Notes: generated by a model from the sequence alone, not told the origin. Shown: positions 16,224 through 44,908, numbered from the stretch's first letter. The stretch: 64,000 bases of DNA from Rickettsiales bacterium (GCA_031260805.1 JAISKV010000001.1:20978-84977), one strand, 5' to 3'. Made by a program: numbers and translations.

Positions 16224-19200
16224 ATGACAAAATCAAAAGCATTGTTTTCAATAATTGGAATGTTGTTGGCGCTGCCCGCATTCGCGGCCCCGTCGGTGCG
16301 CATGCTGCCGCGGACTGGAACTCCGCTGCCTGACGCGGTCAAAGATTCCGGCGACAGCAGCGATGCAACCGTGCAGATTCAAGACGAAACGGATTCGGCA
16401 TCGCGCCCCAGCGGCGGCTATGTTCTGGGCGGCGGCAGTTCTGTGGCCGCGGGCCGGGCATCTTCAACGCGCGCATCATCGTCGCGTGCCGCAACTTCGG
16501 GCCAGGCGCGTTTGTCCGTGGGCAAGTTCTTGAACAACGCCGTGGCGAAAAAGACGCCTGGCGCGGTTATAACAACACCGGGCGCCAGCACTGAAAATAT
16601 GCGCGATTACGCGACGAATGAAGACTTGGCGGATGTCGGCCAGTTGATCCAGGATGTTGATGATGATCTGCATGACAATTATTATGACAAGTCAAATGTT
16701 GACTCGCAAATGGATGGCAAGGCGGACAAGTTGTTAAGCGGCGCGGCCGGAAACTTGCTGGAACTTTCCGCGGATGGAAATTACCGCGATTCCGGCCAGA
16801 CGATATCCAGCATTGCAGCGAATACGGCGACCAAGGCGAATTTGCTGGTGTCCGGATTTACGGCGGGCAATATCGCGACGATTGCGGCGGATGGAAATTA
16901 TCAGGACAGCGGGATTGATCCGGCGACACTGGCAACCAAGACCTATGTTGATTCTGCAATTGGCGACGCGGGCAGCAATTTGTCAGACGCGGTTTCCAAT
17001 ATTACGACCAGCATCGCGACCAAGGCCGATTTGGTTATTGGCGCGGCCGAAGATAATTTTGCATCATTGACGGCGACCGGGAATTTGGCTGACAGCGGAT
17101 TTTCTGCGGACAGTTTTGCGGGCCGCACTGCGACAATTGACGCGTTGGCAGTCAAGGCCGACAAGGTTGCGGGCGCCACCGGTGGAAATTTTGCCGGTCT
17201 GGATGCAAACGGAAATCTGACTGATTCAGGTAAAAAAGCGGCTGATTTTGTCGCCAAGAACAAAACTGTTACGACTGGTAATTTCGCGGCGGTGAACGCG
17301 GCCAGCGGGGAATTTACAGACAGTGGGTTCAAGGCTGGCGATTTCGCGACAGCGGCGCAAGGGTTGCTGGCGGTCAATGCGATTCCGCGCGTTACAAATC
17401 CGACAGCCGGGCATATTGTGAAATTGGATGCCAGCGGCAATCTGGTTGACGGCGGTACTTTGGGTTCAATGGCCGGCAAGAGCGGTGTTACTTCCGAAGA
17501 CATCAATGACGGCACGATCATGAATGTGGACATTTCGCCGATTGCGCAGATTGCGCGCGAAAAATTGTCCGACGGGGTCCAGGATTCATTGGCTTTGGCG
17601 GATAATTCGGTCCAGAAATCCACAAACGGCGTTGTGCCTGTGGAAAACAATCTGGCAATGTACGATGCCAGCGGCAATTTGACCGATTCCGGTGAAAGCG
17701 TTGCGACGCTGAAAGATTACACGGATGTTGCGGTTTATAACGAAGAACAGGCGCGGATTGCGGATGTTGATGCCGAAGAAGCGGCGCGGATTCTGGCAAT
17801 ATCAAATGAAGCGGCGGCACGGACCGCGGCGGATACGGCGCTATCAAATGCATTGGCCCAGGAAATTTCAGACAGAATCGCGGATGTGAATGCCGAAGAA
17901 GCGGCGCGGATTCTGGCCGTGTCAAATGAAGCGGCAACGCGAAGCGCGGCGGATACGGCCCTATCAAATGCATTGACCCAAGAAATTTCAGACAGAACGG
18001 CGGCGATTGCGGCCGAAGCGGCGGCGCGTACCGCTGCGGACACAACACTGTCAAACGCGCTGGCCCAGGAAATTTCCGACAGAACGCTTGCGATTTCTAA
18101 TGAAGTATCGGCGCGAAGTGCGGCGGATACCGCGCTCTCGAACGCGCTGACCGCGGCGATTGCCCAGGAAGTGGTTGACAGAAACACTGCAATTCTGAAC
18201 GATGCAGTTCAGACGGTGGTGCTGGCATCTGGCACGGCCGAAGGCACATTGAAAATAACAGTTGATGGCGCGACCACGGATAATGTCTCGGTCAAGGATT
18301 GGGCGAAAGTCGCGCATAAAATGGAAACTTATCCGGCCGGCCATGCGGATGCGATCGTTATCCGCGACACAAACGGGGATGTTATTGCATCCGGCACCAA
18401 TCTGGCGGATATCGCGGACGCCATTGCAAATGCTGTCCAGAATGTCGCTTTTGCAACCGGGTCAACCGGCGGTTCGTTGAAAATCACAGTGAACGGCGTT
18501 GACAAGGAAGCGACTGTCAAGGATTGGGATACCAAGGCTGATAAAGTTATTTCGGCGACAAATAATAACTTTGCAGGATTGAATGCGGCCGGAAATCTGA
18601 CAGATTCTGGCAAGAATGCGACCAGTTTTATTGCGAATGCGGCCAGCGCGGTCTTGAACAGCCATATTGCGGACGATGCGGTCCAGACCGGCAAGATAAA
18701 AGACTTGAATATAACAACGAACAAATTGGCCGACAGCGCGGTTACCAGCATAAAAATCGCCGATGGAACAATTGCGACGGTTGATATTTCCGATGGCGCT
18801 ATTACATTACCGAAGATAAACGCGACCGCGTACGATACTGCGGTTACATCCGCGTCTGCAAAACTGATTACCAGTGGCGGCGTGTACACTGCAATTCAGG
18901 ACAGCGCGGTTCAGACGGCGGTTTTGGCATCCGGAACAAATTCCGGCACGATGAAACTAACCGTGGATGGCGTCGCGACGGACAATGTCGCTGTTACCGG
19001 ATGGGGGACCAAGGCGGACAAGGCCGTGCCGACAACCGCGAACAATATCGCGATATTGGATTCAATCGGGAATTACAAGGACAGCGGGACTTCGCTGGCG
19101 GATATCGCTGCGTCTATCGCGACTGCGATTAACAGCACGCTGGACAGCGGAAATGTTTCAATAACAACAGGAACCAGCAACGGATATGTCAAACTGACAG

Positions 19201-20195
19201 TCAACGGAACTCCGCAAGAGGCCGAGGTCAAGGGGATAAACACAGCGGCATACCAGCCGTCCAGCGCGTTTATCGCGAATGCAGCGAATGCGGTCTTGAA
19301 CAGCCATATCAATGCAGCCGCGGTTGATTCTGCCAAGTTGGCGACCGATTCGGTTATAACGGCCAAGATTATGAACGCAGCGGTGACGGTGGATAAAATG
19401 GCGGCCAGTTCCGTCGGATCCGCGCAGATTATTGACGGTTCAATTGCTACTGCGGATCTGGGCGCGGGCGTTGTTACTAATGCGAAACTGGCGGCGAATT
19501 CGGTTGCTTCGTCCAATATCATTGATGGATCGGTTGACGAAGTTGACTTGGCTGCGAACAGCGTGACCAGCGCGAAGATAGCGAACGGCAACATAACATT
19601 TGCAAAAATGGCGACCGGCGCGGTTGATGCGACGCTGACCGCGGCATCTGACAAGTTGCCGACATCAGCGGCGGTTTCCAATGCATTGACTGCGGCGGTT
19701 TCCGCGGCGGTCAGCTCGACGACATACTCTGCCGGAAATGGAATTGACATAACATCCAATGTTATCAAGGCGATTGCGGACGCGACGGGCGGACTGTCTG
19801 TGGCGGCTGCCGGGATGAAAATCGCGGACAGCGGCGTTACGACGGCGCGGATAAATAATGCTGCGGTGACGGCTGACAAACTGGCGGCGGATTCAGTCAT
19901 AACGAACAAATTGGCCGACAGCGCGGTTACCAGCATAAAAATCGCCGATGGAACAATTGCGACGGTTGATATTTCCGATGGCGCTATTACCAGTGCAAAA
20001 ATACTGGATGGAACGATTGCGGCGGCTGATTTGGGTCCGAACAGCGTTATAACCGCAAAAATCGCCGACAGCAATGTTACCAAGGTTAAATTGGAAACTT
20101 CGGTCCAAACGACATTGGATTGGGTTGGAACAATACCTGTGGGCGCGCCGGGCGGAACCCCGTCGGCGGGACGCGCATTCATCTGGATAGAATAA
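16224..20195 (+). CDS. giant secreted fibre/adhesin-like protein with phage-tail-fibre-like repeats
   Basis: 1323 aa with a signal peptide. Ala/Ser-rich region. About 35-aa repeats ending in (D/T)DSG. Four coiled-coil units AAARTAADTALSNALAQEISDR. Many 11-residue xxAVTxxKIADG repeats. Confidence 0.6.
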   Translation: MTKSKALFSIIGMLLALPAFAAPSVRMLPRTGTPLPDAVKDSGDSSDATVQIQDETDSASRPSGGYVLGGGSSVAAGRASSTRASSSRAATSGQARLSVGKFLNNAVAKKTPGAVITTPGASTENMRDYATNEDLADVGQLIQDVDDDLHDNYYDKSNVDSQMDGKADKLLSGAAGNLLELSADGNYRDSGQTISSIAANTATKANLLVSGFTAGNIATIAADGNYQDSGIDPATLATKTYVDSAIGDAGSNLSDAVSNITTSIATKADLVIGAAEDNFASLTATGNLADSGFSADSFAGRTATIDALAVKADKVAGATGGNFAGLDANGNLTDSGKKAADFVAKNKTVTTGNFAAVNAASGEFTDSGFKAGDFATAAQGLLAVNAIPRVTNPTAGHIVKLDASGNLVDGGTLGSMAGKSGVTSEDINDGTIMNVDISPIAQIAREKLSDGVQDSLALADNSVQKSTNGVVPVENNLAMYDASGNLTDSGESVATLKDYTDVAVYNEEQARIADVDAEEAARILAISNEAAARTAADTALSNALAQEISDRIADVNAEEAARILAVSNEAATRSAADTALSNALTQEISDRTAAIAAEAAARTAADTTLSNALAQEISDRTLAISNEVSARSAADTALSNALTAAIAQEVVDRNTAILNDAVQTVVLASGTAEGTLKITVDGATTDNVSVKDWAKVAHKMETYPAGHADAIVIRDTNGDVIASGTNLADIADAIANAVQNVAFATGSTGGSLKITVNGVDKEATVKDWDTKADKVISATNNNFAGLNAAGNLTDSGKNATSFIANAASAVLNSHIADDAVQTGKIKDLNITTNKLADSAVTSIKIADGTIATVDISDGAITLPKINATAYDTAVTSASAKLITSGGVYTAIQDSAVQTAVLASGTNSGTMKLTVDGVATDNVAVTGWGTKADKAVPTTANNIAILDSIGNYKDSGTSLADIAASIATAINSTLDSGNVSITTGTSNGYVKLTVNGTPQEAEVKGINTAAYQPSSAFIANAANAVLNSHINAAAVDSAKLATDSVITAKIMNAAVTVDKMAASSVGSAQIIDGSIATADLGAGVVTNAKLAANSVASSNIIDGSVDEVDLAANSVTSAKIANGNITFAKMATGAVDATLTAASDKLPTSAAVSNALTAAVSAAVSSTTYSAGNGIDITSNVIKAIADATGGLSVAAAGMKIADSGVTTARINNAAVTADKLAADSVITNKLADSAVTSIKIADGTIATVDISDGAITSAKILDGTIAAADLGPNSVITAKIADSNVTKVKLETSVQTTLDWVGTIPVGAPGGTPSAGRAFIWIE

Positions 20196-23519: not shown

Positions 23520-25343
23520 ATGATGGAACGCATAAGAAATTTTTCAATAATCGCGCACATTGACCATGGCAAGTCCACCTTGTCCGACCGCTTGATTGAA
23601 TATTGCGGCGGCCTGGAATCGCGCGAGATGAAGGCCCAAGTCCTGGACAGCATGGATATAGAGCGGGAGCGCGGGATTACTATCAAGGCCCAGACGGTGC
23701 GGCTGACATACAAGGCGCGCGATGGGCAGACTTACCAACTGAATTTAATGGACACGCCGGGACATGTGGACTTTGCATATGAAGTGTCGCGCAGTCTGGC
23801 CGCGTGCGAAGGCGCGGTGCTGCTGGTGGATGCGACCCAGGGGGTCCAGGCCCAGACGCTGGCCAACGCATATTTGGCGATTGACAATGACTTGGAAATT
23901 CTGCCGGTGCTGAACAAGATTGATTTGCCTTCGTCCGATGTTGAAATGACGAAGCGGCAGATTGCGGATGTCGTCGGGCTGCCGGCGGACGATGCGCAAA
24001 GCGTGTCCGGCAAGACCGGGGCGGGCATTCCTGAATTGTTGGAAACAATCGTCGGCCGGCTGCCGTCGCCGAATGGAAATCCGAATGCGGCCGCGCGCGC
24101 ATTGCTGGTGGATTCGTGGTACGATTCGTATTTGGGCGTCGTGTGCCTGGTGCGCGTGGTTGACGGGAAGTTAACGCGCGGGCAAAAGATTAAATTCATT
24201 GCGACCGGCGCGGAATACGAAATTGATAAAATCGGATACTTTACGCCGAAAATGGTGAATACGGAAAGTCTGGAATGCGGCGAAATCGGCTTTGTCATAA
24301 CCGGCATGAAAACGATTCGCGATTGCAAAGTCGGCGACACGATAACCGGCAGCGATCAGCGGGCGGCGGACAGCGAGCCTTTGCCAGGATTCAAGCCGTC
24401 TGTGCCTGTGGTGTTTTCTTCATTCTTTCCGGTGGAAGCGGACGATTACCCGACGCTGCGCGACAGTGCGGAAAAGTTGGCGCTGAACGATTCGTCTTTT
24501 GTGTTCCAGGTGGAAAAGTCGTCCGCATTGGGGTTTGGGCTGCGCTGCGGATTTCTGGGCCTGCTGCATATGGAGATTATAAGCGAGCGATTGAGCCGCG
24601 AATTTAACTTGAATCTGATAAACACGATTCCAAGCGTGCTGTACAAGATTCATCGCAGATCTGGCGGGGGCGCAAAAGCTGCCGACATGGAAGACGGGAT
24701 CATAAATCTTGAAAATCCTGCGGATATGCCGCCGCCTGAACAGATTGATTTTATTGAAGAGCCTTGGGTGCGCGCGACCATCATGCTGCCAGACCAGTAT
24801 CTGGGCGGAATCATGTCGCTGTGCGTGGAACGGCGCGGAATTCAGGAAAACATGTCTTATGTTGGCAATCGGGTGGTTCTGGTTTACCGGCTGCCGCTGG
24901 CCGAGATTGTTTTTGATTTTTACGACCGGGTCAAATCATTGACATCCGGCTATGCCAGTTTCGAGTATCATCTGGACGGATACGAATCGTCCGATCTGGT
25001 CAAGGTATCTGTGCTGGTAAACGAAGAAGTGGTAGAGCCTTTGTCGTTCCTGTGCCATCGGTCGTTCGCGGAAAAGCGCGGCCGCCAGATTGTGGAAAAG
25101 TTGAAAGACCTTATCCCGCGGCATCAGTTCAAGATTCCAATCCAGGCGGCCATCGGCGGCAAAATCATCGCGCGCGAAACAATTGCGGCGTACCGCAAGG
25201 ATGTTACGGCAAAATGCTATGGCGGGGACATTTCTCGCAAGCGGAAATTATTGGAAAAGCAAAAGGAAGGTAAAAAACGGATGCGGTCGTTCGGGAATGT
25301 TGAAATCCCGCAAACGGCATTTATCAACGCATTGAAGGTTTGA
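23520..25343 (+). CDS. lepA: elongation factor 4 (LepA)
   Basis: GTPase G1 [21 protein letters not shown]; LepA-specific C-terminal domain; start trimmed to MMERIRNF. Confidence 0.9.
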
Positions 25344-25414
25344 GGTTTAAGATTTAAGGTTTGAGGTTTCGGCCTAATTACCTTAAACCTTAAATCTCAA
25401 ACCTCAAACCTTAA
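25337..25414. repeat. palindromic hairpin of GGTTTGAGG/GGTTTAAGA words (same word family as 11088-11285)
   Basis: GGTTTGAGGTTTAAGATTTAAGGTTTGAGGTTT-loop-reverse complement; first word provides the final codons KV-stop of lepA. Confidence 0.8.
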
Positions 25415-25417
25415 AAT

Positions 25418-26410
25418 ATGAGTCATCAGTTCTTCTTTTCACCGTACATATTGGATAATCTGGTGGCGCCGGCGGCCGGATTCAGCGTGTTCCAGGATAT
25501 TGCCCAGCCGAAACTGAAAATTTACATAACCGCGCGCGGCGTGCGGACTTTCTTTACGCGCAAGCGCGTGCACGGCCGGGACCAGCGGATAATTCTGGGC
25601 AATTATCCGGAAACAGACATTGAAACGGCGCGGGGAATTCTGGGCGATGCGATTGCGGCGCGGTGCGCGCCGATTCAGAAGAAAAATGCCGCGATTAGTG
25701 TCGGCGCGCTGATTAAAATCTGGATTCGCGATAAAATTAAGTCCAAGTCCAAAACTCTGCGCGCGACAACACGGCACTTTGGCAAAATATGGACCAAGCG
25801 GCTGAGCGCAATAACCGCGGACGAACTGGGCGAGATTATCCGCAGCATCGCTGAATCCGCCGGGCCGGCAATCGCGTGCCGGATGCGCTGCGCCGCGGTC
25901 AGTTTTTTCAAGCATGCGGTGCAACTGGGATACCTGGAAAAAAATCCGGCCGCGGGGATTCCCAGGATTGCGGCCCAGCCGCGGCATAAAAACAGGCTCA
26001 GTTGGACGGCATTGTCAAAACTGGTCCGCGCGATACGGTCTGAACAGGACGAAAATACGCGGCGCGCGTTTTTAATGCTGGTTTACGGATTTGCAAATCG
26101 GTCGCGGATTTTTTCAATGCGTTGGTCGGACATAGATTTTAACCAGTACGCATGGCATGACGGGCTGCTGTCCGATCCGGCCATAGATTTAATCCAGGAA
26201 ATGTCCCAGGATTTCGTATGGCTGTTTCCGGGGCGCGGCCGCCGGCATCTGACGGATCCGCGCGGGGCGTGGCGGCGGATTGTGAAAAATGCGGGCTTGC
26301 GCGAAATCCAAATGAATGATGTTTACAAGTTTCTGAAATCAAAACTTCCGAAAACCGGCGATATTTATGAATTGCGCGCCGCGAAAAACGATATCTTGAC
26401 AAAAATTTGA
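25418..26410 (+). CDS. phage-type tyrosine integrase-like protein, probably truncated/degenerate
   Basis: N-terminal P4-type arm-binding domain (KLKIYITARGVRTFFTRKRV). SAM-like core-binding domain. Only the start of the catalytic domain (FLMLVYGFANRSRIFSMRWSDID). No clear HxxR...Y tail. 330 aa. Confidence 0.5.
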   Translation: MSHQFFFSPYILDNLVAPAAGFSVFQDIAQPKLKIYITARGVRTFFTRKRVHGRDQRIILGNYPETDIETARGILGDAIAARCAPIQKKNAAISVGALIKIWIRDKIKSKSKTLRATTRHFGKIWTKRLSAITADELGEIIRSIAESAGPAIACRMRCAAVSFFKHAVQLGYLEKNPAAGIPRIAAQPRHKNRLSWTALSKLVRAIRSEQDENTRRAFLMLVYGFANRSRIFSMRWSDIDFNQYAWHDGLLSDPAIDLIQEMSQDFVWLFPGRGRRHLTDPRGAWRRIVKNAGLREIQMNDVYKFLKSKLPKTGDIYELRAAKNDILTKI

Positions 26411-30108: not shown

Positions 30109-30138
30109 AAAAAAAACGGGCCCCGGCCCGTTTTTTTT
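30107..30138 (+). terminator. rho-independent terminator
   Basis: AAAAAAAAACGGGCCCCGGCCCGTTTTTTTT. Confidence 0.75.
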
Positions 30139-30216
30139 GTGAAGGTGTAGGTGGAGGTGAAGGTGAATGTGCGGGAATGACGATATCTCAACCTACACCT
30201 ACACTTTCACATACAC
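30139..30216. repeat. palindromic hairpin of GGTGAAGGTGTAGGTGGAGGTG words
   Basis: Arms GTGAAGGTGTAGGTGGAGGTGAAGGTGAATGTG and CAACCTACACCTACACTTTCACATACACC. Loop contains GCGGGAATGACGA (dRS3-like word). Confidence 0.8.
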
Positions 30217-30802: not shown

Positions 30803-30979
30803 ATGGCGTTTGATGTAGAAGCGGTATACAAGGAATATCAGGCGGCAGTTCGTTCAGGTAATGTTAACAAAATGAATGAAGTGCTGGAAAGTTTGAGCGA
30901 GGCTAAGTTCGGATTGTTAAGAAACTATATCAAGACAGTGAACGCAAAAGCCGCTATTGAGAATATTAAAAATAAATAA
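30803..30979 (+). CDS. small hypothetical protein (58 aa) inserted between rpsL and rpsG
   Basis: Begins 4 nt after rpsL stop. [61 protein letters not shown]. Not in ORF track (<60 aa). Confidence 0.4.
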
Positions 30980-31035: not shown

Positions 31036-31509
31036 ATGTCAAGACGAAACAGGGCAGTTAAACGGGAAATACTCAACGATTCCAAATACAACAATGCGGT
31101 TGTCGCGAAATGCATTAATATTATTATGCAGGATGGAAAAAAGGAAGTTGCGGAATCCATTGTTTACGGCGCGATGGAGAAATTGAAAAAAATCGCCAAG
31201 GATAACAATGAGCTGGCAATGTTCCTGACTGCGATTGACAATCTGAAACCAAGCGTGGAAGTAAAATCGCGGCGCGTTGGCGGAGCGACATACCAGGTCC
31301 CGGTGGAAGTTCGCCGTGATCGCCAGCAAACGCTGGCATTGCGCTGGCTGGTGGGCTTTGCCCGCAAGCGCAGCGAACGCAGCATGGAAGACCGTTTGTT
31401 TACGGAATTGCGCGATGCATTCGGCGGAACAGGCAGCGCGTTCAAGAAAAAGATTGACACACACAAAATGGCGGACGCGAACAAGGCGTTTGCGCATTTC
31501 CGCTGGTAA
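31036..31509 (+). CDS. rpsG: 30S ribosomal protein S7
   Basis: S7 conserved blocks ([33 protein letters not shown]); start trimmed to MSRRN. Confidence 0.95.
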
Positions 31510-31685
31510 TTTCCGCGCTGCGCGCGAAAATTAATGAATAATGAACAATGAATAGTTGTTCAGCAAGCAAAAGGTGAAGAAAGAATAAAAAATAATAAAT
31601 AATATTGCTGCGAGCAAAGCGAGCACAAACATTATTCATTATTCACTATTCATTATTCACTATTTGCGAACAAAGAGAGCAAATT
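31510..31685. repeat. ~175-nt intergenic repeat family B, copy 1 (rpsG-fusA spacer)
   Basis: Terminator-like GC hairpin, then arm AATGAATAATGAACAATGAATA. Then a core of about 75 nt, followed by arm CATTATTCATTATTCACTATTCATTATTCACTATTT. Near-identical copy at 42994-43177. Confidence 0.85.
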
Positions 31686-33767
31686 ATGTCTGTTGGAAAA
31701 ACCGCACCTTTGCATATGTATAGAAATATCGGCATTATGGCCCATATTGATGCTGGCAAGACGACGACCAGCGAACGCATTTTGTATTACACAGGCGTGA
31801 ATTACAAAATCGGCGAAGTGCATGACGGCGCGGCGACAATGGACTGGATGGTTCAGGAACAGGAGCGCGGGATCACGATTACATCTGCGGCGACGACTTG
31901 TTTTTGGCGCGATCATCGCATCAACTTGATTGATACGCCGGGCCATGTGGACTTTACTATGGAAGTGGAACGCTCCCTGCGCGTTCTGGACGGCGCGGTT
32001 GCGGTGTTCGAGTCTGTTTCCGGCGTGCAGCCGCAGTCTGAGACCGTTTGGCGTCAAGCGGATCGTTATAATGTTCCGCGCATCTGCTTTATTAACAAAA
32101 TGGACCGCACCGGCGCGAACTTCTTCCGCTGCGTGGACATGATACGCGAAAGACTGGGCGCGAATCCGCTGGTCTTGAATTTCCCGATTGGCGAAGAAGA
32201 AGCGTTCCGCGGCGTGGTTGATGTTGTGGAAATGAAGGGGATTGTTTGGGAAGACGAAACCGGATCCACCCCGATTGAAATTGATATTCCGGCGGAACTG
32301 CGGGCCAAGGCCGACGAATTGCACGATCGCTTGATTGAAGAAGCAGTAACCCAGGACGAAGCGGTTATGGAATCTTATATGGACGGATGCGTTCCGGACA
32401 TCGACACGATTAAAAAATTATTGCGCAAGGGAACGATTTCCCAGGCGTTCACGCCGATTGTATGCGGCACGGCGTTCAAGAACAAGGGCGTCCAGGCATT
32501 ATTGGATGCGGTTGTTGATTACTTGCCGTCGCCATTGGATATCGCGGCGATCAAGGGAACAAAGAAAGACGGCGAAACCGAAGAATTCCGCAAACCGTCA
32601 GCGGAAGAGCCTTTTGCGGCCCTGGCGTTCAAGGTTGCGAATGACCCGTTTGTCGGAAACTTGATGTTTATCCGCATTTATTCCGGGAAATTGTCCAGCG
32701 GCTCTTACATTTACAATTCAACGCGCGACAAGCGCGAGCGCGTCGGCCGCATGCTGCTGATGCATGCTAACAACCGCGAAGAAATCAAGGAAGCGTCCGC
32801 CGGCGATATCATAACGCTGGTCGGGATGAAGGAAACGATTACTGGCGACACGCTGTGCGACGAGTCCAAGCCGATCATCCTGGAATCAATCCATGTTCCG
32901 GATCCGGTTATGTCAATTTCCGTTGAACCGAAAACCAAAAACGATATTGAAAAACTGTCATTGGGATTGCAGGCGCTGGCCCGCGAAGATCCTTCGTTCC
33001 GCGTGTCGGTTGACCAGGAAAGCGGCCAGACGATTTTGTCCGGCGTCGGCGAATTGCACTTGGAAATTCTGGTGGACAGATTGCTGCGCGAGTTCAAGGT
33101 TGATGTTAATGTCGGCGAACCGCTGATTGCATACCGCGAATCATTCCGCAAAGCAATAGAAGAAGAGTACACGCATAAAAAGCAGTCCGGCGGTTCCGGC
33201 CAGTACGCCCAGGTGAAAATTAAATTTGAGCCGTTGGAACCGGGCAGCGGATATGAATTTGACAATCAGATTGTCGGCGGCGCGATACCGCGCGAATACA
33301 TCCCCGGTGTTGAAAAGGGATTGAAAATCGCCCAGCAAACCGGCGTTCTGATTGGATACCCGACCGTGGATTTCAAGGCGACTCTGATTGATGGAAAGTA
33401 CCATGAAGTTGACTCTAATGTGTTATGCTTTGAAATTGCGGCGCGCTCTTGCTTTCGCGAAGCGATAAAAAAGGCGCAGCCGAAACTGATGGAACCGATC
33501 ATGAAGGTGAGTGTTACTACGCCCGAAGAATATGTCGGCGACATCATTGGGGATCTGAACAGCCGTCGCGGTCAGATTAACGGGATTGAAACGCAGTTTG
33601 GAAACCAGGTGGTTTCAGCGTTCGTTCCGCTGGCGCAACTGTTCGGGTATATCAAGACCTTGCGCTCGCTGTCGCAGGGGCGCGCGAACCCGTACATGGA
33701 ATTGTCGCACTATGCGGATGTTCCACAGGGCGTGGCGGATGAAGTTATTAAAAAGATGATGAAGTAA
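31686..33767 (+). CDS. fusA: elongation factor G
   Basis: [23 protein letters not shown] GTPase motifs; full five-domain length; start trimmed to MSVGKTAP. Confidence 0.95.
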
Positions 33768-33852
33768 AACAATTAAAAATTAATAATTAAGAATTATAAA
33801 TTGGAACACAGTTATTAATTCTTAATTCATTTACTACGAAGGAGTAAATAAA

Positions 33853-35040
33853 ATGGCAAAAGAAAAATATGTACGCAGCAAACCGCATGTCAATATTGGT
33901 ACAATCGGCCATGTTGACCATGGAAAAACAACACTGACCGCCGCCATTGTGCATTACTATGGCATTGGCGCTGATGCCAAGAAAGGCGTCAATGACATTG
34001 ACAATGCGCCGGAAGAAAAAGCGCGCGGCATTACAATCAACACAGCGCATGTGGAATATGAAACAGAAAACCGCCACTACGCGCATGTAGACTGCCCGGG
34101 ACACGCGGACTATGTCAAGAATATGATTACCGGTGCGGCCCAGATGGACGGCGCGATCATCGTGGTTGCGGCGACAGACGGCCCGATGCCGCAGACGCGC
34201 GAACACATATTGCTGGCACGCCAGGTCGGTATTCCGAAAATCGTTGTTTACCTGAACAAGTGCGACTTGCTGAATGATCCGGAACTGTTGGAATTGGTTG
34301 AAATGGAAGTTCGCGAATTGCTGTCCGCCAATAACTTTGACGGCGAAAACACCCCGATTATCCGCGGTTCAGCCGTTTCAGCGCTGGAAGGCAAAGCAGA
34401 TGGTTTGGGCAAGGAATCAATTGACAACCTGCTGGCCGCGTGCGATTCGTTTATCCCGCTGCCGGAACGCCCGACGGACAAGTCTTTCCTGATGCCGATT
34501 GAAGATGTGTTTTCAATAACCGGCCGCGGAACCGTTTGTACCGGCCGTATTGAACAGGGTATCATCAAAGTTGGTGATGAAGCGGAAATCGTTGGTCTGC
34601 GCCCGACACAGAAAACGACAATAACCGGCGTTGAAATGTTCCGCAAATTGCTGGACGAAGGCCAGGCCGGGGACAATGTCGGACTGCTGCTGCGCGGAAC
34701 CAAGAAAGAAGATGTGGAGCGCGGACAAATCGTGTGCAAGCCGGGATCAATCACCCCGCACACCGAGTTCGAGGCGGAAATCTATGTCTTGAACAAAGAA
34801 GAAGGCGGCCGCCACACTGCATTTTTCAGCAACTATCGTCCGCAGTTCTATTTCAGCACGACAGATGTTACGGGAACAGTGGTTCTGCCGGCTGACAAAG
34901 AAATGGTTCTGCCGGGGGACAATGTCCGCATCACTGTCAACTTGATCGCGCCGATCGCGATGAGCGAAGGCCGCCGGTTTGCTATCCGCGAAGGCGGACG
35001 CACAGTTGGCGCGGGCGTCGTGTCAAAAATTATCAAATAA
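33853..35040 (+). CDS. tuf: elongation factor Tu
   Basis: [22 protein letters not shown] motifs; 395 aa. Confidence 0.97.
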
Positions 35041-35068
35041 TTTGGCGCAGCCAAATTATTTGATAGAT

Positions 35069-35130
35069 ATGAAACATGAGACACGAGACATGAATAATCA
35101 TGTTTCATATCTCATGTCTCGTATCTCAAA
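35069..35130. repeat. palindromic hairpin of ATGAAACATGAGACACGAGACATGA words
   Basis: Arm ATGAAACATGAGACACGAGACATGA / loop / TCATGTTTCATATCTCATGTCTCGTATCTCA. Preceded by a small terminator-like hairpin TTTGGCGCAGCCAAATT after tuf. Confidence 0.8.
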
Positions 35131-35469: not shown

Positions 35470-35470
35470 A

Positions 35471-35551
35471 GGTGTAAGTGTATGTGCGGGTGTAAGTTGA
35501 TTTTGCTTACAATTTCACCTGCACATACACCTGCACCTGCACAAAAAGGTA
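35471..35551. repeat. palindromic hairpin of GGTGTAAGTGTATGTGCGGGTGTAAG words
   Basis: Arms GGTGTAAGTGTATGTGCGGGTGTAAGTTG and CAATTTCACCTGCACATACACCTGCACCTGCAC between rpsJ and rplC. Confidence 0.8.
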
Positions 35552-37274: not shown

Positions 37275-37279
37275 TATAG

Positions 37280-37368
37280 ATAAAAGATAAAAATGAAAAG
37301 ATAAAAATTATTGCAGAAATTATTATCTTTTATCTTTTAATTTTTATCTTAAACGAACGAAGTGAGTT
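37280..37368. repeat. ~88-nt intergenic repeat family A, copy 1 (rplW-rplB spacer)
   Basis: GATAAAAGATAAAAATGAAAAGATAAAAATTATTGCAGAAATTATTATCTTTTATCTTTTAATTTTTATCTTAAACGAACGAAGTGAGTT. Palindromic AT-rich arms plus an AAACGAACGAAGTGAGT module ending 5-8 nt before the start codon. Confidence 0.9.
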
Positions 37369-37373
37369 AAATT

Positions 37374-38207
37374 ATGGCATTGAAACAGTACAAACCAAAT
37401 ACACCTGGAACGCGCGGATTAATCCTGGTTGATCACAGCGAACTGCATCGCGGCGCGCCTGAAAAATCTTTGACGCGCGGATTGAAATCCAACGGCGGCC
37501 GCAACAATTTCGGCCATATGGTTGTCCCGCATCAGGGCGGCGGCCACAAGCGGTCTTATCGTCTGATTGACTTCAAGCGGAAATTGCGCGATGTTGCAGG
37601 CACAGTGGTTCGTTTGGAATACGATCCGAACCGCACCGCGTTTATCGCGCTGATTGAATACGCCGGCGGCGCGAAGTCCTATATCATCGCGCCGAAAAAT
37701 CTGGCTGTTGGCGATTCAGTTATTGCGGCGGACCGCGCGGATATCAAGCCGGGCAACGCGATGCCGTTGAAAAACATGCCGATCGGAACAATCATTCACA
37801 ATGTTGAGATGAAGCCGGGGGCGGGCGGACAACTGGCGCGCAGCGCTGGCTGCTATGCCCAATTGATGGGCAAGGACGGCGTTTACGCGCAGATTAAAAT
37901 GAACAGCGGCGAACTGCGCAAGATTCATTCCGAATGCATGGCCACGGTCGGCAGCGTTTCCAATCCTGACCAGCGCAATGTGAATCTGGGCAAGGCAGGG
38001 CGCGCGCGCTGGCTGGGTATCCGCCCGTCAACACGCGGTATGGCGATGAATCCGGTTGATCACCCGAACGGCGGCGGAAACGGCCGGTCCAAGGGACATT
38101 CGCCTGTGTCGCGCACCGGCATCCCGGCCAAGGGATTCCGCACGCGGAAAAATAAACAGACTGCGAAAATGATAATTCGTTCGCGTCATTTGAACAAGAA
38201 GAAATAA
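37374..38207 (+). CDS. rplB: 50S ribosomal protein L2
   Basis: L2 conserved blocks ([21 protein letters not shown]). Confidence 0.97.
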
Positions 38208-38217
38208 AGGTAAAAAT

Positions 38218-38511
38218 ATGTCTCGCAGTGTTTGGAAAGGACCATTCGTTCATCCTTCGGTGTTAAAAAAGACCGCCAAGGCGAACGAAATCAACGATCG
38301 CAAGCCGATCAAGACTTGGGCGCGCGGTTCAACAATTGTTCCGCCGATGGTCGGATTGACTTTTGATGTCCACAACGGGCACAAATTTATCCCTGTCCTG
38401 GTTTCCGAAGATATGATCGGACACAAGTTGGGCGAATTCTCGCCGACGCGGACCTTTAAGGGCCATGCTGCGAACAAGAAAGCGGCGGCCGCGACCAAGG
38501 GAAAGAAATAA
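38218..38511 (+). CDS. rpsS: 30S ribosomal protein S19
   Basis: [12 protein letters not shown]-terminus, S19 core. Confidence 0.97.
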
Positions 38512-38535
38512 AATTTGCGCCGCAAATTTTATCAA

Positions 38536-38624
38536 GATAAAAGATAAAAATGAAAAGATAAAAATTATTGCAGAAATTATTATCTTTTATCTTTTAATTT
38601 TTATATTAAACGAACGAAGTGAGT
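38536..38624. repeat. intergenic repeat family A, copy 2 (rpsS-rplV spacer)
   Basis: Near-identical to copy 1; preceded by terminator-like hairpin AAATTTGCGCCGCAAATTTT (38511-38530). Confidence 0.9.
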
Positions 38625-38630
38625 TTAGTT

Positions 38631-39068
38631 ATGGCAGAAAAATATAATATTAAAGAAAATCAGGCGCGCGCATTTGACAAAATGATTCGTGTTTCGCACC
38701 AGAAATTGGGCCTGGTCATTGACACAATCCGCGGATTGCCGGTGGCCAAGGCGGTTGATGTGCTGAAATTTTCCAAAAAGCGCGTTGCCGGTCATGTTCT
38801 GAAAGTTCTGATGTCGGCGATCGCCAATGCGGAACACAATAAAAAACTGCCAGCGGATTCTTTGTTCGTGCGCGAAATCTGGTGCGGCAAGTCAATAACG
38901 ATGAAACGAGTGTATTTTGGCGGAATGACCCAGAACGGGGCGGGCGGCGTTCGTCATATCTTGAAGCCTTTTTCCAATCTGACGATTATCGTGGAAAGCG
39001 GCGCGGCACCGGAAAAAAAGAAAGAAGTTAAAAAAACGGAAGTTAAAAAAGAGACAAAGAAAAAATAA
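38631..39068 (+). CDS. rplV: 50S ribosomal protein L22
   Basis: L22 core (ARAFDKMIRVSHQKL...) plus Lys-rich C-terminal tail; start trimmed to MAEKYN. Confidence 0.9.
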   Translation: MAEKYNIKENQARAFDKMIRVSHQKLGLVIDTIRGLPVAKAVDVLKFSKKRVAGHVLKVLMSAIANAEHNKKLPADSLFVREIWCGKSITMKRVYFGGMTQNGAGGVRHILKPFSNLTIIVESGAAPEKKKEVKKTEVKKETKKK

Positions 39069-39069
39069 T

Positions 39070-39120
39070 TTTCAGAGTTCAGAATTCAGTATTTTGACTG
39101 AACTCTGAAAACTGAAAACT
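39070..39120. repeat. palindromic hairpin of CAGAGTTCAGAATTCAG words
   Basis: TTTTCAGAGTTCAGAATTCAGTATTTTGACTGAACTCTGAAAACTGAAAAC. Same word family at about 20228-20252, 52795-52820 and 60482-60522. Confidence 0.8.
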
Positions 39121-39146
39121 ATTTGCGACGATAGGAGCAAACAAGT

Positions 39147-39848
39147 ATGGGACAGAAAGTATCACCAATATCGCTGCGGGTTGGAATCAATAAAACACCT
39201 GATTCCCGCTGGATTGCGACCAAGCGCGATTATGCGGCAAACTTGGCCGAAGATGTCAAGATTCGCAATTTCATTGAAAAGAAATTGGAAAAAGCGGGCT
39301 TGGCCAAAGTTGTTATTGAACGGTTCGGCAAGAAAGTCGTCGTGACAGTCCATACTTCGCGCCCCGGTATGATTATCGGCAAAAACGGCGGAGATATAGA
39401 GGCTTTGCGCGCAGCGATTAAAAAGTTGAGCAAGAATGACCAGGTTGTCGTGAATATTTTCGAGGTTCGCCGTCCTGATCTGAACGCCAAACTGGTTGCG
39501 AAAAATATCGCAACGCAGATAGAAGGCCGCATTGCGTTCAAGCGCGCGATGAAGAAGGCAATCCAAGGCTCGGTCAAGGCGGGCGCGCAGGGAATCAAGG
39601 TCATGTGCGCGGGCCGTCTGAACGGCGCGGAAATCGCCCGTACCGAACACATGCGCGAAGGTCAGATTCCATTGCACACATTGCGCGCGGATATTGATTA
39701 TGCTTCGTTGCAGGCAAAAACGACCTATGGGGTTATCGGGGTCAAGGTCTGGATTTACAACGGCGATGTCGTAAATCGTGAAAAATTGGCCGCTGAAATG
39801 GCGCGCCCGACGGAATACGCCGCATCAAGCGAAAAAGATAAAAGATAA
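39147..39848 (+). CDS. rpsC: 30S ribosomal protein S3
   Basis: KH domain and S3 C-terminal domain; last codons (EKDKR-stop) fall inside repeat A copy 3. Confidence 0.95.
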
Positions 39849-39935
39849 AAATGAAAAGATAAAAATTTCTGCTGGTAAAGGAAAATAATTATTATCTTTT
39901 ATCTTTTAATTTTTATCTGAAATTAGCGAAGAGAG
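39833..39935. repeat. intergenic repeat family A, copy 3 (variant; rpsC-rplP spacer)
   Basis: GATAAAAGATAAAAATGAAAAGATAAAAAT...ATTATTATCTTTTATCTTTTAATTTTTATCT. Diverged centre and 3' module. The 5' arm overlaps the rpsC stop. Confidence 0.85.
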
Positions 39936-39943
39936 CAAATATT

Positions 39944-40578: not shown

Positions 40579-40845
40579 ATGCCAAGACGAGTATTACAAG
40601 GAACAGTGGTCAGCGATGCCAACGACAAAACAGTTGTCGTCAATGTTGAACGCCGGTTCCGTCATCCCTTGTACGGGAAATTTGTAAAACAGAACAAAAA
40701 GTACAAGGTGCACGACGAAAACAACGAATATAAAAAAGGCCAGGTGGTTGCCATTGAAGAGCACCGTCCGATTTCCAAAACGAAAAAGTGGATGGTTCGC
40801 GGACTGGTCGGCGTCGCCAAAGACGCAAGCGTGGATGTGGAATAA
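40579..40845 (+). CDS. rpsQ: 30S ribosomal protein S17
   Basis: [29 protein letters not shown]-fold S17 sequence. Confidence 0.95.
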
Positions 40846-40975
40846 AAATTAAGAATTAATAATCAAGAATTAAGAATTCTTGAAGATTGATTCTGATTAT
40901 ATAGATAAACGGGGAAAGAGTTCAGGTTTTGATAGAGAATATAATTCTTGATTCTTAATTCTTAATTCTTAATTA
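40846..40975. repeat. long palindrome of AATTAAGAATTAATAATCAAGAATTAAGAATT words
   Basis: Arms AAATTAAGAATTAATAATCAAGAATTAAGAATTCTTG and AATTCTTGATTCTTAATTCTTAATTCTTAATT with about 60-nt loop. Same word family at 3217-3311, 33790-33835, 43580-43615 and 60310-60420. Confidence 0.8.
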
Positions 40976-40979
40976 TGAA

Positions 40980-41711: not shown

Positions 41712-41987
41712 GTGGCGTCTGATTTTTCGGCGGGCAACGCCGGGGGTCAGAAAGTGGTTAAGAAAATTACAGTTCCTGCGATGATATATTATCTGGTTGT
41801 GCAGGGCGAATATATTGTCGGTCAAGAAGATTCGTATCAGATATCTGGACATGACATAGTGGCGAACGGAAAATATGTTATATACAATTCCGAAACAAGG
41901 AAAGTCAGGGTCAGGGCGGTAAAAGAAAAAGATTTATTGCAGAAAACGGTTTTAAGACTGGTTTTGGAAAACGAAAAGAAAAAATAA
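41712..41987 (+). CDS. hypothetical protein (91 aa) inserted between rplX and rplE
   Basis: GTG start 15 nt after rplX stop with AGCAAGAGG upstream. Beta-rich sequence VPAMIYYLVVQGEYIVGQ...GKYVIYNSETRKVRVRAV with Lys-rich tail. Not a known ribosomal protein. Confidence 0.4.
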   Translation: MASDFSAGNAGGQKVVKKITVPAMIYYLVVQGEYIVGQEDSYQISGHDIVANGKYVIYNSETRKVRVRAVKEKDLLQKTVLRLVLENEKKK

Positions 41988-42026: not shown

Positions 42027-42572
42027 ATGCAGAGCAGATTGCGAGATTTTTACGAAAAGACCATAGTTCCCGAATTAAAAAAGGAATTCAGTCTGACAAA
42101 CAGCCTGGCGGTTCCGCGCATTACGAAAATCGTGCTGAACATGGGCGTGGGTGAAGCGGCGGCGGACAAAAAGAAACTGGACAACGCGGCGGCGGATCTG
42201 ACACTGATTGCGGCGCAGAAGCCTGTTATCACCAAGGCGAAAAAGTCAATCGCGACATACCGCCTGCGCGAAGGCCAGGCCATCGGGACCAAGGTCACCC
42301 TGCGCGGAAAGCGCATGTATGATTTCTTGGACAAACTGATTACAATCGCATTGCCGCGGATAAAAGACTTTCAGGGATTGTCCAAGTCCAAATTTGACGG
42401 GCGCGGAAACTATGCCTTTGGAATCAAGGAACATTTGATATTCCCGGAAATTTCCGTTGAAAAAATAGAATCTATCCGCGGAATGGATATCGTTATCGCG
42501 ACCACCGCCGAAACAGATGACCAAGGGCGCGCATTGCTGACCAGAATCGGCCTGCCGCTGGTGTTGAAATAA
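42027..42572 (+). CDS. rplE: 50S ribosomal protein L5
   Basis: L5 conserved core ([13 protein letters not shown]...); start trimmed to [10 protein letters not shown]. Confidence 0.95.
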
Positions 42573-42596
42573 AATTTGCGGCGCAAATTTTATCAA

Positions 42597-42686
42597 GATA
42601 AAAGATAAAAATGAAAAGATAAAAATTATTGCAGAAATTATTATCTTTTATCTCTTAATTTTTATCTTAAACGAACGAAGTGAGTG
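42597..42686. repeat. intergenic repeat family A, copy 4 (rplE-rpsN spacer)
   Basis: Near-identical to copies 1-2; preceded by terminator-like AAAATTTGCGGCGCAAATTTT; 3' module ends 4 nt before rpsN ATG. Confidence 0.9.
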
Positions 42687-42690
42687 AAAA

Positions 42691-42993
42691 ATGGCAAAGA
42701 AAGCATTAAGATTAAAACAGGACAAGCGGATCAAGATGGTTGCGCGCTTTACTAAAAAGCACGACGCTATCAAAGATAAAATGTCCATAACCGCGACGCC
42801 CGAAGAACGGATGGACGCAATGAAAAAATTGGCGAAACTGCCGCGCAACGCGAACAAGACGCGCCTGCACAACCGCTGCGCCATCACTGGCCGGTCGCGC
42901 GGATTCTTCCGCCTGTTCGGACTGTGCCGCCAACAGGTTCGCACGCTGGCGTCCGAAGGAAAACTGCCGGGCGTCCGCAAATCGTCATGGTAA
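42691..42993 (+). CDS. rpsN: 30S ribosomal protein S14 (long, non-zinc type)
   Basis: 101 aa, RCAITGRSRGFFRLFGLCRQ C-terminal S14 block, no CxxC pair. Confidence 0.95.
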   Translation: MAKKALRLKQDKRIKMVARFTKKHDAIKDKMSITATPEERMDAMKKLAKLPRNANKTRLHNRCAITGRSRGFFRLFGLCRQQVRTLASEGKLPGVRKSSW

Positions 42994-43177
42994 TTTTTGC
43001 GCCGCGCGCAAAAATTAATGAATAATTAAAAATGAACAATGAATAATTGTTCAGCAAGCAAAAGGTGAAGAAAGAATAAAAAATAATAAATAATATTGCT
43101 GCGAGCAAAGCGAGCCAAACATTATTCATTATTCACTATTCATTATTCACTATTTGCGACTGCAAGGAGCAAATGAA
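42994..43177. repeat. intergenic repeat family B, copy 2 (rpsN-rpsH spacer)
   Basis: Near-identical to 31510-31685, including internal GTTCAGCAAGCAAAAGGTGAAGAAAGAATAAAAAATAATAAATAATATTGCTGCGAGCAAAGCGAGC core. Confidence 0.85.
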
Positions 43178-43579
43178 ATGAGTTTATCATATCCGATCGG
43201 GGACTTGTTGGCAAGAATTCGCAACGGGCAGCGCGCGTATAAGCCTTCTGTCCGCGCGCCGTACAGCAAACTGGCTGCCAATGTGCTGGATGTCATGAAG
43301 GCCGAAGGCTTTATCACGGACTTTCGCAAAGAAGATCTGGGCGACAACAAGTTTGATGTCATCGTTGACTTGAAATATGTCGCGGGCGGCGAAGGCGCGA
43401 TTCAGGAATTGTCGCTGGTATCCAAACCGGGCCGCCGCGTTTATTCCAATGTCGCCAAGATGCCGCGCGTCATGAACGGGCTGGGCGTGCTGATTGTTTC
43501 AACGCCGGGCGGAATTATGACTGATCACCAGGCGCGCATGCAGAACATCGGCGGCGAAGTGATTTGCAAAATAGTTTGA
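43178..43579 (+). CDS. rpsH: 30S ribosomal protein S8
   Basis: DLLARIRNGQRA N-terminal block, S8 core; start trimmed to MSLSYP. Confidence 0.95.
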   Translation: MSLSYPIGDLLARIRNGQRAYKPSVRAPYSKLAANVLDVMKAEGFITDFRKEDLGDNKFDVIVDLKYVAGGEGAIQELSLVSKPGRRVYSNVAKMPRVMNGLGVLIVSTPGGIMTDHQARMQNIGGEVICKIV

Positions 43580-43640
43580 TAAAATTAAGAATTAAGAAAT
43601 AAGAATTAATAATTCTTTTACGAACGAAGTGAGTGAAATT

Positions 43641-44201
43641 ATGAGCAGAGCGGGAAAATATCCAGTAGAAATCAAAAACGGCGTCAATGTCGCCATTGTC
43701 GGGTCCGACATTGTTGTCCGGGGGCCGCGCGGCGAATTGAAACTGCGCAATGACACGAAAAATGCCGGCTTGGTTGATGTCAAGATTGAAGGCGCGGCGG
43801 TTGTCGTCATTCCGAAAGACGCGGAAGACAAAGCATCGCGCGCGATGTGGGGAACAATGGCTCGCAACATCAAACAGATGGTTGTCGGCGTCACAGACGG
43901 CTGGTCCAAAGATATTTGCATGAAGGGCGTCGGGTACAAGGCGAATGTGCGCGGTTCCGACCTGGTGCTGACAGCAGGATACTCGCATGATGTCGTCATG
44001 CCGATTCCGGCCGGATTGTCTGTTGAAATCGGCGCGACTGAAAACGGCATTGTGAACTTTGCAGTTCGTGGGACTGACAAAAACGCGGTCGGACAGTTCA
44101 GCGACAAAATCTGCAAGGTGCGTCCGGTTGAACCTTACAAGGCCAAGGGCATTTATTACAAGGGTCAAAAGATTATCCGCAAAGAAGGAAAAAAGAAATA
44201 A
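43641..44201 (+). CDS. rplF: 50S ribosomal protein L6
   Basis: MSRAGKYPVEI...two-domain L6; start trimmed. Confidence 0.95.
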   Translation: MSRAGKYPVEIKNGVNVAIVGSDIVVRGPRGELKLRNDTKNAGLVDVKIEGAAVVVIPKDAEDKASRAMWGTMARNIKQMVVGVTDGWSKDICMKGVGYKANVRGSDLVLTAGYSHDVVMPIPAGLSVEIGATENGIVNFAVRGTDKNAVGQFSDKICKVRPVEPYKAKGIYYKGQKIIRKEGKKK

Positions 44202-44398
44202 TGTTTGATGTTCGGACTTTATGCATGGCATTGGGTTATGGAACCGGTATTGCGGGCGCGGCTGTCATATTTGTGTCGGCTTTTGCATCCAAGGCAAAAA
44301 GCGATGCCATGAACGCGGAACAGTTTAACGAATTGATGGAAATAAACAAGCGGGCGTTGGAATGTTTTGACAATGCCAAGAGAATAGAAGTAAAATAA
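44201..44398 (+). CDS. small hypothetical membrane-associated protein (65 aa) inserted between rplF and rplR
   Basis: ATG overlaps rplF stop (TAATG coupling arrangement); one hydrophobic helix then charged helical tail. Confidence 0.4.
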   Translation: MFDVRTLCMALGYGTGIAGAAVIFVSAFASKAKSDAMNAEQFNELMEINKRALECFDNAKRIEVK

Positions 44399-44458: not shown

Positions 44459-44812
44459 ATGTTGAAAAAGTTAGATACAAACGAACGCCGCGTGATGTCT
44501 GTCCGCAGCGCGCTGAAAAAGAAAAATCCCGGAAAAATCCGCCTTTCGGTTTTCCGCAGCGTCCGCCATATTGAAATCCAGGCGATTGATGATGTCAACG
44601 GCCGCACGCTGGCCTTTGCATCCAGCAAGGAAAAAGATTTCAAGGGCAACGGCTGGAATGTCGCCGGGGCGACCGCGGTTGGCAAAATATTTGCCGAACG
44701 CGCCAAGCAGGCAAAACTGGACGCGGTTTATTTTGACCGCGGCGGATACCGCTATCACGGCCGGGTCCGGGCGTTGGCGGACGCGATGCGCGCCGGTGGG
44801 GTCAAGATTTAA
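44459..44812 (+). CDS. rplR: 50S ribosomal protein L18
   Basis: RLSVFRS...HIEIQAIDD...YFDRGGYRYHGRV conserved L18. Confidence 0.95.
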   Translation: MLKKLDTNERRVMSVRSALKKKNPGKIRLSVFRSVRHIEIQAIDDVNGRTLAFASSKEKDFKGNGWNVAGATAVGKIFAERAKQAKLDAVYFDRGGYRYHGRVRALADAMRAGGVKI

Positions 44813-44835
44813 TTTCCGCGCCGCGGAAATTAAAT

Positions 44836-44908
44836 CAGTTATTAGTTATTAATTATTATACTTTTGCGCGCAATGATGTAATAATTAATAACTGATAATT
44901 TATAACTA
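44836..44908. repeat. palindromic hairpin of CAGTTATTAGTTATTAATTATTA words
   Basis: Arms CAGTTATTAGTTATTAATTATTATAC and GTAATAATTAATAACTGATAATTTATAACTA. Preceded by small hairpin AATTTCCGCGCCGCGGAAATT after rplR. Confidence 0.8.

Follow-up and report, generated by a model that had tools for sequence, protein, structure and literature searches.

The region under study lies in a window of 64,000 nt, the whole stretch of DNA that was analysed, from a metagenome-assembled genome of a Rickettsiales bacterium (GCA_031260805.1, JAISKV010000001.1:20978-84977), and comprises two spacers, rpsG-fusA in the str operon and rpsN-rpsH in the spc operon, whose flanking genes were assigned to S7, EF-G, S14 and S8 (NCBIfam). 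The rpsG-fusA spacer holds copy A (31510-31685) and the rpsN-rpsH spacer copy B (42994-43177) of one element. Their alignment has 183 columns, 163 of them identical, in agreement with the initial annotation, which had reported a match in about 160 of 175 positions. Copy A, which like copy B is described here on the + strand, begins with a palindrome of which the rpsG stop codon is part (module 1, 31507-31533; UAAUUUC-CGCGC-UGC-GCGCG-AAAAUUA), which folds as a hairpin and was not flagged as a terminator. This is followed by arm L1, (TAATGAA)x3.3 with a period of 7 according to TRF, and a small predicted hairpin, UGAACAAU-GAAUA-GUUGUUCA (31534-31562), and then by the main interrupted hairpin (31566-31669), in which arm L2 is paired with the 3' arm around the apex TTGCTGCGAGCAAAGCGAGC (36 predicted pairs in the MFE and centroid folds). 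The last part (31670-31685), just 5' of the fusA ATG at 31686, is a remnant of the ancestral spacer with the SD ACAAAGAGAGCAAATT, recognised from the empty-site alignment of seven relatives by its ACAAAG...ATG motif, which has been kept. Copy B has the same layout: a stop-codon hairpin including the rpsN TAA (42991-43017), which is perfect (stem of 12 bp, loop of 3 nt; fold and perfect-hairpin census); a body (43018-43159), recognised by identity to copy A and by its fold, made up of an L1 with one heptamer more, then the small hairpin and the main L2:R hairpin; and an SD region, CTGCAAGGAGCAAATGAA (43160-43177), before the rpsH ATG at 43178. The relative L095 has AAGGAGCAAATTATG at the site matching the copy B SD region. 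The initial annotation had placed the GC hairpin right after the upstream stop codon; the stop codon is in fact part of the palindrome (UAAUUU...AAAUUA).

The bodies of the two copies (31534-31669 and 43018-43159; 136-142 nt) are identical at 134 of 135 aligned positions and are further distinguished by one 7-nt and one 1-nt indel; identity is 23 of 27 positions in the stop-codon hairpin and 9 of 13 in the RBS/SD part. Within the body, a 67-nt 'core' is the same in both copies, with no third occurrence in the 64-kb window (0 expected from shuffles). The unit of the repeat is (GAATAAT)n on the 5' arms and (ATTATTC)n on the 3' arms, and TRF reported period 7 at 31532-31554, 31584-31604 and 31630-31664 and at the equivalent positions in copy B. 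Arm L1 of copy B equals that of copy A plus exactly one 7-nt unit, a single event, and such a shift of arm length in whole 7-nt steps fits slippage. It is shown by the alignment that copying of the ~140-nt body between these spacers is very recent, whether it took the form of a transposition-like insertion or of recombination/gene conversion. The true start of fusA is the ATG at 31686, the EF-G of all relatives aligning from residue 1 (MSVGK), and the N-terminal extension of fusA is, as the initial annotation had it, a read-through of the repeat. False N-terminal extensions in the ORF calls arise from repeats, the 27 codons of fusA being one example.

Folding of the element gave MFE values of -45.3 (copy A) and -48.3 kcal/mol (copy B), with z = -3.9 and -5.4 against shuffles, and the rpsG-fusA spacer of ten relatives measures only 27-87 nt and lacks the element, so that the description of a large structured element, unusual inside the str and spc operons, is upheld. 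The predicted fold consists of three stem-loops, namely the stop-codon palindrome, the small hairpin and the long interrupted hairpin, in which a pyrimidine-rich 3' arm (CATTATT/CACTATT x5) pairs with the purine-rich L2 'core' (degenerate GAAKAAW x5) below the GC-rich apex. It had been proposed that the AATGAAT arm (L1) and a complementary arm close the element around a conserved, unpaired core. About 20 of 24 Watson-Crick pairs between L1 and the 3' arm do exist, but pairing of the 3' arm with L1 yields -37 kcal/mol, 8 worse than its pairing with the core (-45); in the folds of both copies the 3' arm pairs by preference with the core, and there is therefore no conserved unpaired core. The alternative pairings are explained by the common heptamer of which each of the three arms is a version (TRF). 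L1 and the distal part of the 3' arm are complementary and might be compared with the terminal inverted repeats (TIRs) of a MITE, but each consists of a heptamer array and it is L2 that pairs in the favoured fold. From the upstream stop codon to the downstream start codon the MFE fold leaves about 30-35 nt unpaired, the ancestral spacer being ~27 nt.

None of the 36 main-stem pairs differs between copies A and B, and covariation is therefore uninformative for this stem. The same applies to a sister family of four copies, the AAGATAA/TTATCTT heptamer hairpin (+ strand, 37275-37373, with further copies at 38533-38618, 39833-39943 and 42594-42690), the arms of which are invariant. The stop-codon hairpin does differ between the copies, at four positions that comprise a single compensatory change of pair, C-G to U-A, and two single changes that leave pairing intact. 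The antisense fold of the element is better than the sense fold by ~10 kcal/mol, since the mismatches of the element are A.C on the sense and G.U on the antisense strand. Across 26 hairpin regions folded on both strands, 44 G.U pairs were counted in the sense and 45 in the antisense orientation. The lack of a G.U bias, together with the better antisense fold, argues against selection on the fold of the sense RNA.

Stop-codon hairpins of this type are not confined to the two copies. GC hairpins of inverse polarity (TAA-TTT/stem/AAA-TTA) begin six spacers, lie over stop codons and are all found within ribosomal-protein operons (perfect-hairpin census; starting at 31507, 35031, 38508, 42569, 42991 and 44806). 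One of them includes the tuf TAA (35031-35065, + strand), and others span 38508-38532, 42569-42593 and 44806-44836. The T-tract lies 5' and the A-tract 3' of the stem (UAAUUU-stem-AAAUUA) on both strands, and the hairpin is thus not terminator-like on either; an intrinsic terminator was rejected on this ground. Canonical bidirectional terminators (A-tract/stem/T-tract) are located at operon ends, and ten were recorded (4594, 4679, 12530, 20193, 30109, 30219, 51110, 52764, 52981 and 54706). A hairpin of the inverse type also follows tuf in the relative L092.

At the other end of the spacers, small hairpins with the SD in the loop recur 5' of fusA, rpsH, rpsC, tuf and rpsE. Two SD segments were found repeatedly: ACGAACGAAGTGAG 5' of rplB, rplV, rpsN and rplF (37347-37376, 38604-38633, 42665-42694 and 43614-43643), and TTTGCGA...GAGCAAA 5' of fusA, rpsC and rpsH (31664-31688, 39117-39149 and 43154-43180). 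The hairpin families are combined with these two recurrent segments, and the spacers look modular. Since repetition extends to the segments that separate hairpin from start codon, the repeat units seem either to bring the ribosome-binding region with them or to have it in common, and the shared SD segments suggest that whole spacers have been replaced.

The element is one of many of its kind in the window. TRF detected 52 tandem arrays of period 7 in the 64 kb, compared with 0-4 in 20 block shuffles that kept the local composition. In the str/S10/spc cluster (30.1-46.4 kb) nearly every spacer is 80-190 nt long, has a GC content of 17-33% (genes, ~55%) and contains a long hairpin whose arms repeat every 7 nt or, in some cases, every 6 nt. 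At least 8 families of heptamer units occur in these spacers and in other intergenic DNA, with units such as AAGATAA (4 loci), AAGAATT (5 loci), AAGGTTT, TTCAGAG, AAAAGTG, AGTTATT, GGTGTAA, GAGACAT and GAATAAT, and the arrays are mostly arranged as inverted repeats. The largest hairpins stand directly upstream of dnaA and dnaN. Of 19 periodic hairpins, 18 (about 8 of 9 families) carry their G on the 5' arm, which is almost without C, and their C on the 3' arm, which is almost without G, as read on the + strand; the hairpins listed for this comparison include those at 3214-3306, 11081-11290, 25331-25430, 30138-30211, 33771-33835, 35065-35126, 35470-35538, 37284-37350, 40843-40977, 44837-44900 and 60314-60421. 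Such polarity would not be expected of randomly oriented palindromes. In the window the polarity coincides with both transcription and replication, because almost all genes are on the leading strand, near dnaA and dnaN.

The AAGATAA array at the 3' end of rpsC starts within the last codons of the gene (39833-39848), and S19, L22 and L3 have C-terminal tails that fail to align with those of relatives; the repeats may have rewritten the 3' ends and stop codons of some genes, including rpsC and, at their C-termini, rpsS and rplV. A perfect 40-nt palindrome (46393-46432) is found directly 5' of secY, and the short-read unitig L091 ends inside it.

The nearest relatives by EF-G are Candidatus Enterousia and allied uncultured gut Alphaproteobacteria of the order Rs-D84, with 86-88% identity. 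The gut alphaproteobacteria of this order have reduced genomes of under ~1 Mb (PMC12306168). Among 5.8 billion proteins no EF-G was found between 89% and 100% identity, a gap which means that there are no intermediate relatives for covariation analysis, and apart from one NCBI MAG (Rickettsiales bacterium) and a single sequencing run no record has the exact EF-G. DNA of the organism is present in run SRR14710919. A search of the window and of relatives for further copies, as advised in the initial annotation, recovered the two copies in the window and none in the orthologous spacers of ten relatives (L002-L008, L092, L093 and L095). At rpsG-fusA, seven GTDB representatives have TAAT..ACAAAGG..ATG, which aligns to both flanks of the insert, and the empty site is clean in 7 of 7 aligned relatives (TGGTAAT/...ACAAAG...ATG). 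The rpsN-rpsH site is not a clean insertion, for there the element replaces ~60 nt that include a hairpin conserved in relatives. The hairpin in question, a small one 5' of rpsH in which the loop, GTGGACAATGC, is invariant and the stem covaries, was present in three of five relatives examined (L003:20690-20715, L005:20826-20850 and L008:20798-20822), all three of the Enterousia group, and may be an S8/spc regulatory structure; it has been lost from the window, where the repeat stands in its place.

The abundance of heptamer arrays is also peculiar to the window, with 8.1 arrays of period 7 per 10 kb compared with 2.2 in L003 and ~0-1.6 in the other relatives. In L003 the arrays belong to one heptamer family, TTAGTGG/CCACTAA, and partly form inverted repeats, which lie around terminators (L003:4513-4659 and 8731-8852). 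Absence of the element from the orthologous spacers of relatives identifies it as a lineage-specific gain, and at the level of sequence comparison this gain is established as lying inside a lineage-specific expansion of heptamer repeats. The L003 family is also seen just 5' of the rpsL promoter, where the window has a hexamer-periodic hairpin (30138-30211).

Searches for known families and signals did not favour the proposal that the core is a small RNA. At gathering thresholds and at E values up to 1, Rfam returned no family for the element and only tRNA-Phe in the window, and sub-threshold hits were generic 'miRNA precursor' matches on other perfect hairpins. On the sense strand, neither copy contains a promoter-like or terminator-like site, and regional counts of such sites were not above those in shuffles; in the region a strong promoter was seen solely 5' of rpsL (30247), where it is conserved. 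A metagenome scan with a non-repetitive 20-mer of the apex gave nine matches, all unrelated and without AT-rich heptamer flanks. A 31-nt pattern from the 3' arm had no match in viral contigs, plasmids yielded no homologue, and phages yielded one match of 36 nt that lies inside the heptamer arm only. The exact S7, S14 and S8 and the proteins at the window ends were found only on short Logan unitigs of one run, 100% identical and broken at repeats.

With regard to mobility, no target-site duplication was seen at the boundaries of either copy or in comparison with the empty sites, a comparison of two copies with AT-rich flanks in which a 2-nt TA duplication would be possible, and no transposase, RAYT or Y1-transposase domain was found among the ORFs scanned in the 64-kb window. 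Assignment to REPIN/REP was rejected, the arms being AT-rich and heptamer-periodic and the window containing no Y1-transposase domain. A weak P4-type integrase-like ORF (25418-26410) immediately follows a heptamer hairpin; its synteny with a relative (L095:1685-2683), in the order lepA, integrase-like, acpP, fabF, marks it as a conserved gene, not a recent mobile element.

Taken as a whole, these results indicate that the element is probably a recently copied, co-transcribed passenger, a heptamer-hairpin repeat belonging to one family among many, and neither an sRNA gene nor a ribosomal-protein leader. Such an element would be transcribed together with the str and spc operons, and its transcript would fold, as predicted, into three stem-loops and so be held out of the way. 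The ~30-35 nt left unpaired, close to the length of the ancestral spacer, would explain how the insert is tolerated in essential operons. Its effect would then be passive, or at most modest, on mRNA stability or processing, as for STRR, REP, ERIC and Correia-type repeats. As to the mode of spread, recombination or gene conversion between spacers fits at least as well as transposition, because the ancestral spacer is replaced at one site and the SD segments are common to several spacers. In its context the single element is ordinary; the genome-wide pattern is striking.

A different reading is that the element is a selected intercistronic RNA module for mRNA processing, stability or coupling, in which the stop hairpin would protect the upstream 3' end, the A-U-rich hairpin would serve as an RNase III-type site or exonuclease barrier, and the SD would stay accessible, whereby the polycistronic ribosomal-protein mRNA would be divided, by cutting or insulation, into units whose stability and translation are set separately. 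We hold this to be possible and unlikely. It is favoured by the recurrence of the three-part layout in many spacers with different sequences, by the restriction of the six inverse-polarity GC hairpins to intra-operon stop codons and of the ten canonical terminators to operon ends, by the polarity of 18 of 19 hairpins, by the recurrent small hairpins with SD in the loop, and by the compensatory pair and two pair-preserving changes in the stop hairpin. There is also precedent, higher transcript stability or coupled translation having been suggested as the effect of STRR hairpins (PMC2670836), and ERIC and Correia-type repeats being known to affect mRNA stability (PMC3184786). Set against this are the absence of the element from both sites in all ten relatives, the A.C mismatches of the main stem with a sense RNA ~10 kcal/mol worse than the antisense, the even count of G.U pairs on the two strands (44 and 45), and the invariance of the 36 main-stem pairs, which lends no covariation support. 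Bolder still, and in our estimate decidedly improbable, is a programmed intercistronic system in which a symbiont with a reduced genome would have exchanged the native spacers throughout its ribosomal-protein operons for modular cassettes, to be read by a factor that measures 7-nt repeats or by a double-strand RNase. The cassette as proposed would consist of a non-terminating stop-codon hairpin, a long strand-polar heptamer duplex and an SD in a small loop. If it were true, polycistronic mRNA would be cut or insulated in a programmed manner into separately controlled units, loosely like intercistronic processing in organelles. A role of the DNA itself, as a cruciform, as a binding site of nucleoid or replication proteins on the arrays, or as a strand-specific ssDNA transposition substrate, the RNA fold being incidental, could be argued from the symmetry of sense and antisense folding, from an arm polarity that tracks the leading strand as much as transcription, and from the position of the largest hairpins directly 5' of dnaA and dnaN. 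It is very unlikely, however, given that the imperfect L2:R stem and the distance of 74-80 nt between L1 and R make a poor cruciform, and that two features are related to transcripts, the GC hairpins placed exactly at stop codons and the difference in their polarity between operon interiors and operon ends.

The remaining readings carry still less weight. That the flanking arms display, in the conserved core, a small RNA or a specific protein-binding site accords with the identity of the 67-nt core in both copies and with the apex GCGAGCAAAGCGAGC, a short direct repeat that could conceivably bind something. We nevertheless regard it as highly improbable, the core being the favoured partner of the 3' arm and hence paired, and its identity being owed to recent copying of the whole 140-nt body (134 of 135 positions) and not to selective conservation. 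Moreover, a sense promoter or terminator, an Rfam match and a homologue in relatives, metagenomes, plasmids and viral contigs were all sought and not found. A ribosomal-protein autoregulatory leader, in which a mimic of the S7 or S8 binding site would control translation of fusA or rpsH, would be in the right position for such regulation. The str and spc operons of E. coli are under such control, S7 and S8 acting at intercistronic mRNA sites. Here one and the same element occurs in two operons under different regulator proteins, is absent from all relatives and matches no ribosomal-protein leader in Rfam, and a different small hairpin, conserved and covarying in relatives 5' of rpsH, has been lost in the window; the chance that the element is such a leader is accordingly slight in the extreme. 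An equally negligible probability is given to an artefact of assembly or duplication in the metagenome-assembled genome, a concern which had been raised as a local duplication and which draws on the breaking of short-read unitigs of the same sample in the repeat arms (L001 starts at window position 31640 and L091 at 43145) and on the record of the genome from one MAG and one sequencing run. The copies have different flanks in canonical gene order, carry copy-specific differences (four substitutions in the stop hairpin, the 7-nt indel and the 1-nt indel), and the fusA and rpsH junctions are reproduced in Logan contigs at 100% identity.

Among the known systems closest to the element described here are the STRR, 7-bp repeats that form intercistronic hairpins in cyanobacteria, for example between hupS and hupL of heterocystous species (PMC2670836). 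The STRR are also tandem 7-bp units in intergenic or intercistronic positions, often inverted so as to give a transcript hairpin, with several unit families per genome, and likewise have no established function, transcript stability or translational coupling having been proposed (PMC2670836). Unlike them, the repeats of the window belong to a gut alphaproteobacterium of reduced genome, have AT-rich units (GAATAAT, AAGATAA, AAGAATT and others), fill the str/S10/spc operons and are accompanied by a stop-codon hairpin and a shared RBS segment, and a composite of 140 nt with a non-repetitive apex has been copied as a unit. Named STRR units of cyanobacteria are CCCCAGT and others. The units found here match neither these nor the TAACTGA heptamer, the nearest in the window being TAACTAA at 20324 and 44837; the STRR class being descriptive, such a mismatch does not bar membership of the kind. 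By analogy, the element would be of the same descriptive kind as STRR, and its dispersal would be MITE-like.

The TAACTGA heptamers occur in marine Beggiatoaceae, some Cyanobacteria and Bacteroidetes, 5' of fusA and other ribosomal-protein genes (MacGregor 2015, PMC4679880). They resemble the present arrays in lying inside ribosomal-protein operons, including the spacer upstream of fusA, and in their sporadic distribution, and a role in translation has been suggested and is unproven (PMC4679880). They differ in being of one unit, almost always direct (169 direct sets and 1 indirect), and a few nt from the start codon (PMC4679880), whereas the window has many unit families, mostly inverted, that form long hairpins with the canonical SD kept. 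The MITE-like Correia/NEMIS, ERIC and RUP repeats are similar in being non-coding, 100-200 bp long and present in multiple near-identical copies, in forming a long RNA stem-loop, in occurring at gene 3' ends and between cistrons, and in their variable presence among related genomes (PMC3184786). In contrast to these, the element shows no target-site duplication and no partner transposase (found neither at the copies nor in the 64-kb window), its 'TIRs' are heptamer arrays, and it replaces the ancestral spacer at one site (rpsN-rpsH). In P. fluorescens, regions of essential genes tend to be repeat deserts (PMC3184786), and here the ribosomal-protein operons are the densest. REP/BIME and REPIN sequences are, like the element, dispersed multi-copy extragenic palindromes, sometimes intercistronic, and can stabilise the upstream mRNA, but REPs are ~20-40 nt, GC-rich and not heptamer-periodic, and REPINs are tied to a RAYT gene. 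Rickettsia palindromic elements (RPE) are, as is the element, dispersed palindromic repeats of 100-150 bp in reduced alphaproteobacterial genomes. Compared by description, they are often in frame in coding genes and, to our knowledge, have not been described as heptamer-periodic.

Heptanucleotide repeats are the most abundant long simple repeats in most bacterial genomes of the survey by Mrazek et al. 2007, as reported in PMC4679880, and their function is not established (PMC2670836). The window represents an extreme and compact case, with at least 8 hairpin-forming unit families in the most highly expressed and tightly coupled operons and sister genomes without them. The contrast with relatives is a natural experiment on structured inserts set against translational coupling and autoregulation in ribosomal-protein operons, and poses the question whether heptamer hairpins are selfish, neutral or useful. 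From a practical point of view, the repeats break short-read assemblies.

Some further features of the window were recorded. Four small ORFs lie between ribosomal-protein genes (30803-30979, 41712-41987, 44201-44398 and 46162-46380, encoding 58, 91, 65 and 72 aa); none had a match in Pfam or, by tblastn, in the fetched loci of relatives, and the 72-aa ORF looks like a small membrane protein. A 1323-aa ORF (16224-20195) with tandem repeats of 120 nt and 87 nt, a 90-nt exact internal repeat and no Pfam match probably encodes a repetitive surface protein. The GC content of the window is 50.6%, compared with 36-45% in the loci of relatives (L002-L008 and L092-L096), and the GC3 of fusA is 0.62 in the window, 0.45 in L003 and 0.23 in L095; the genes of the lineage have moved to higher GC, and its spacers are still at 17-33%.
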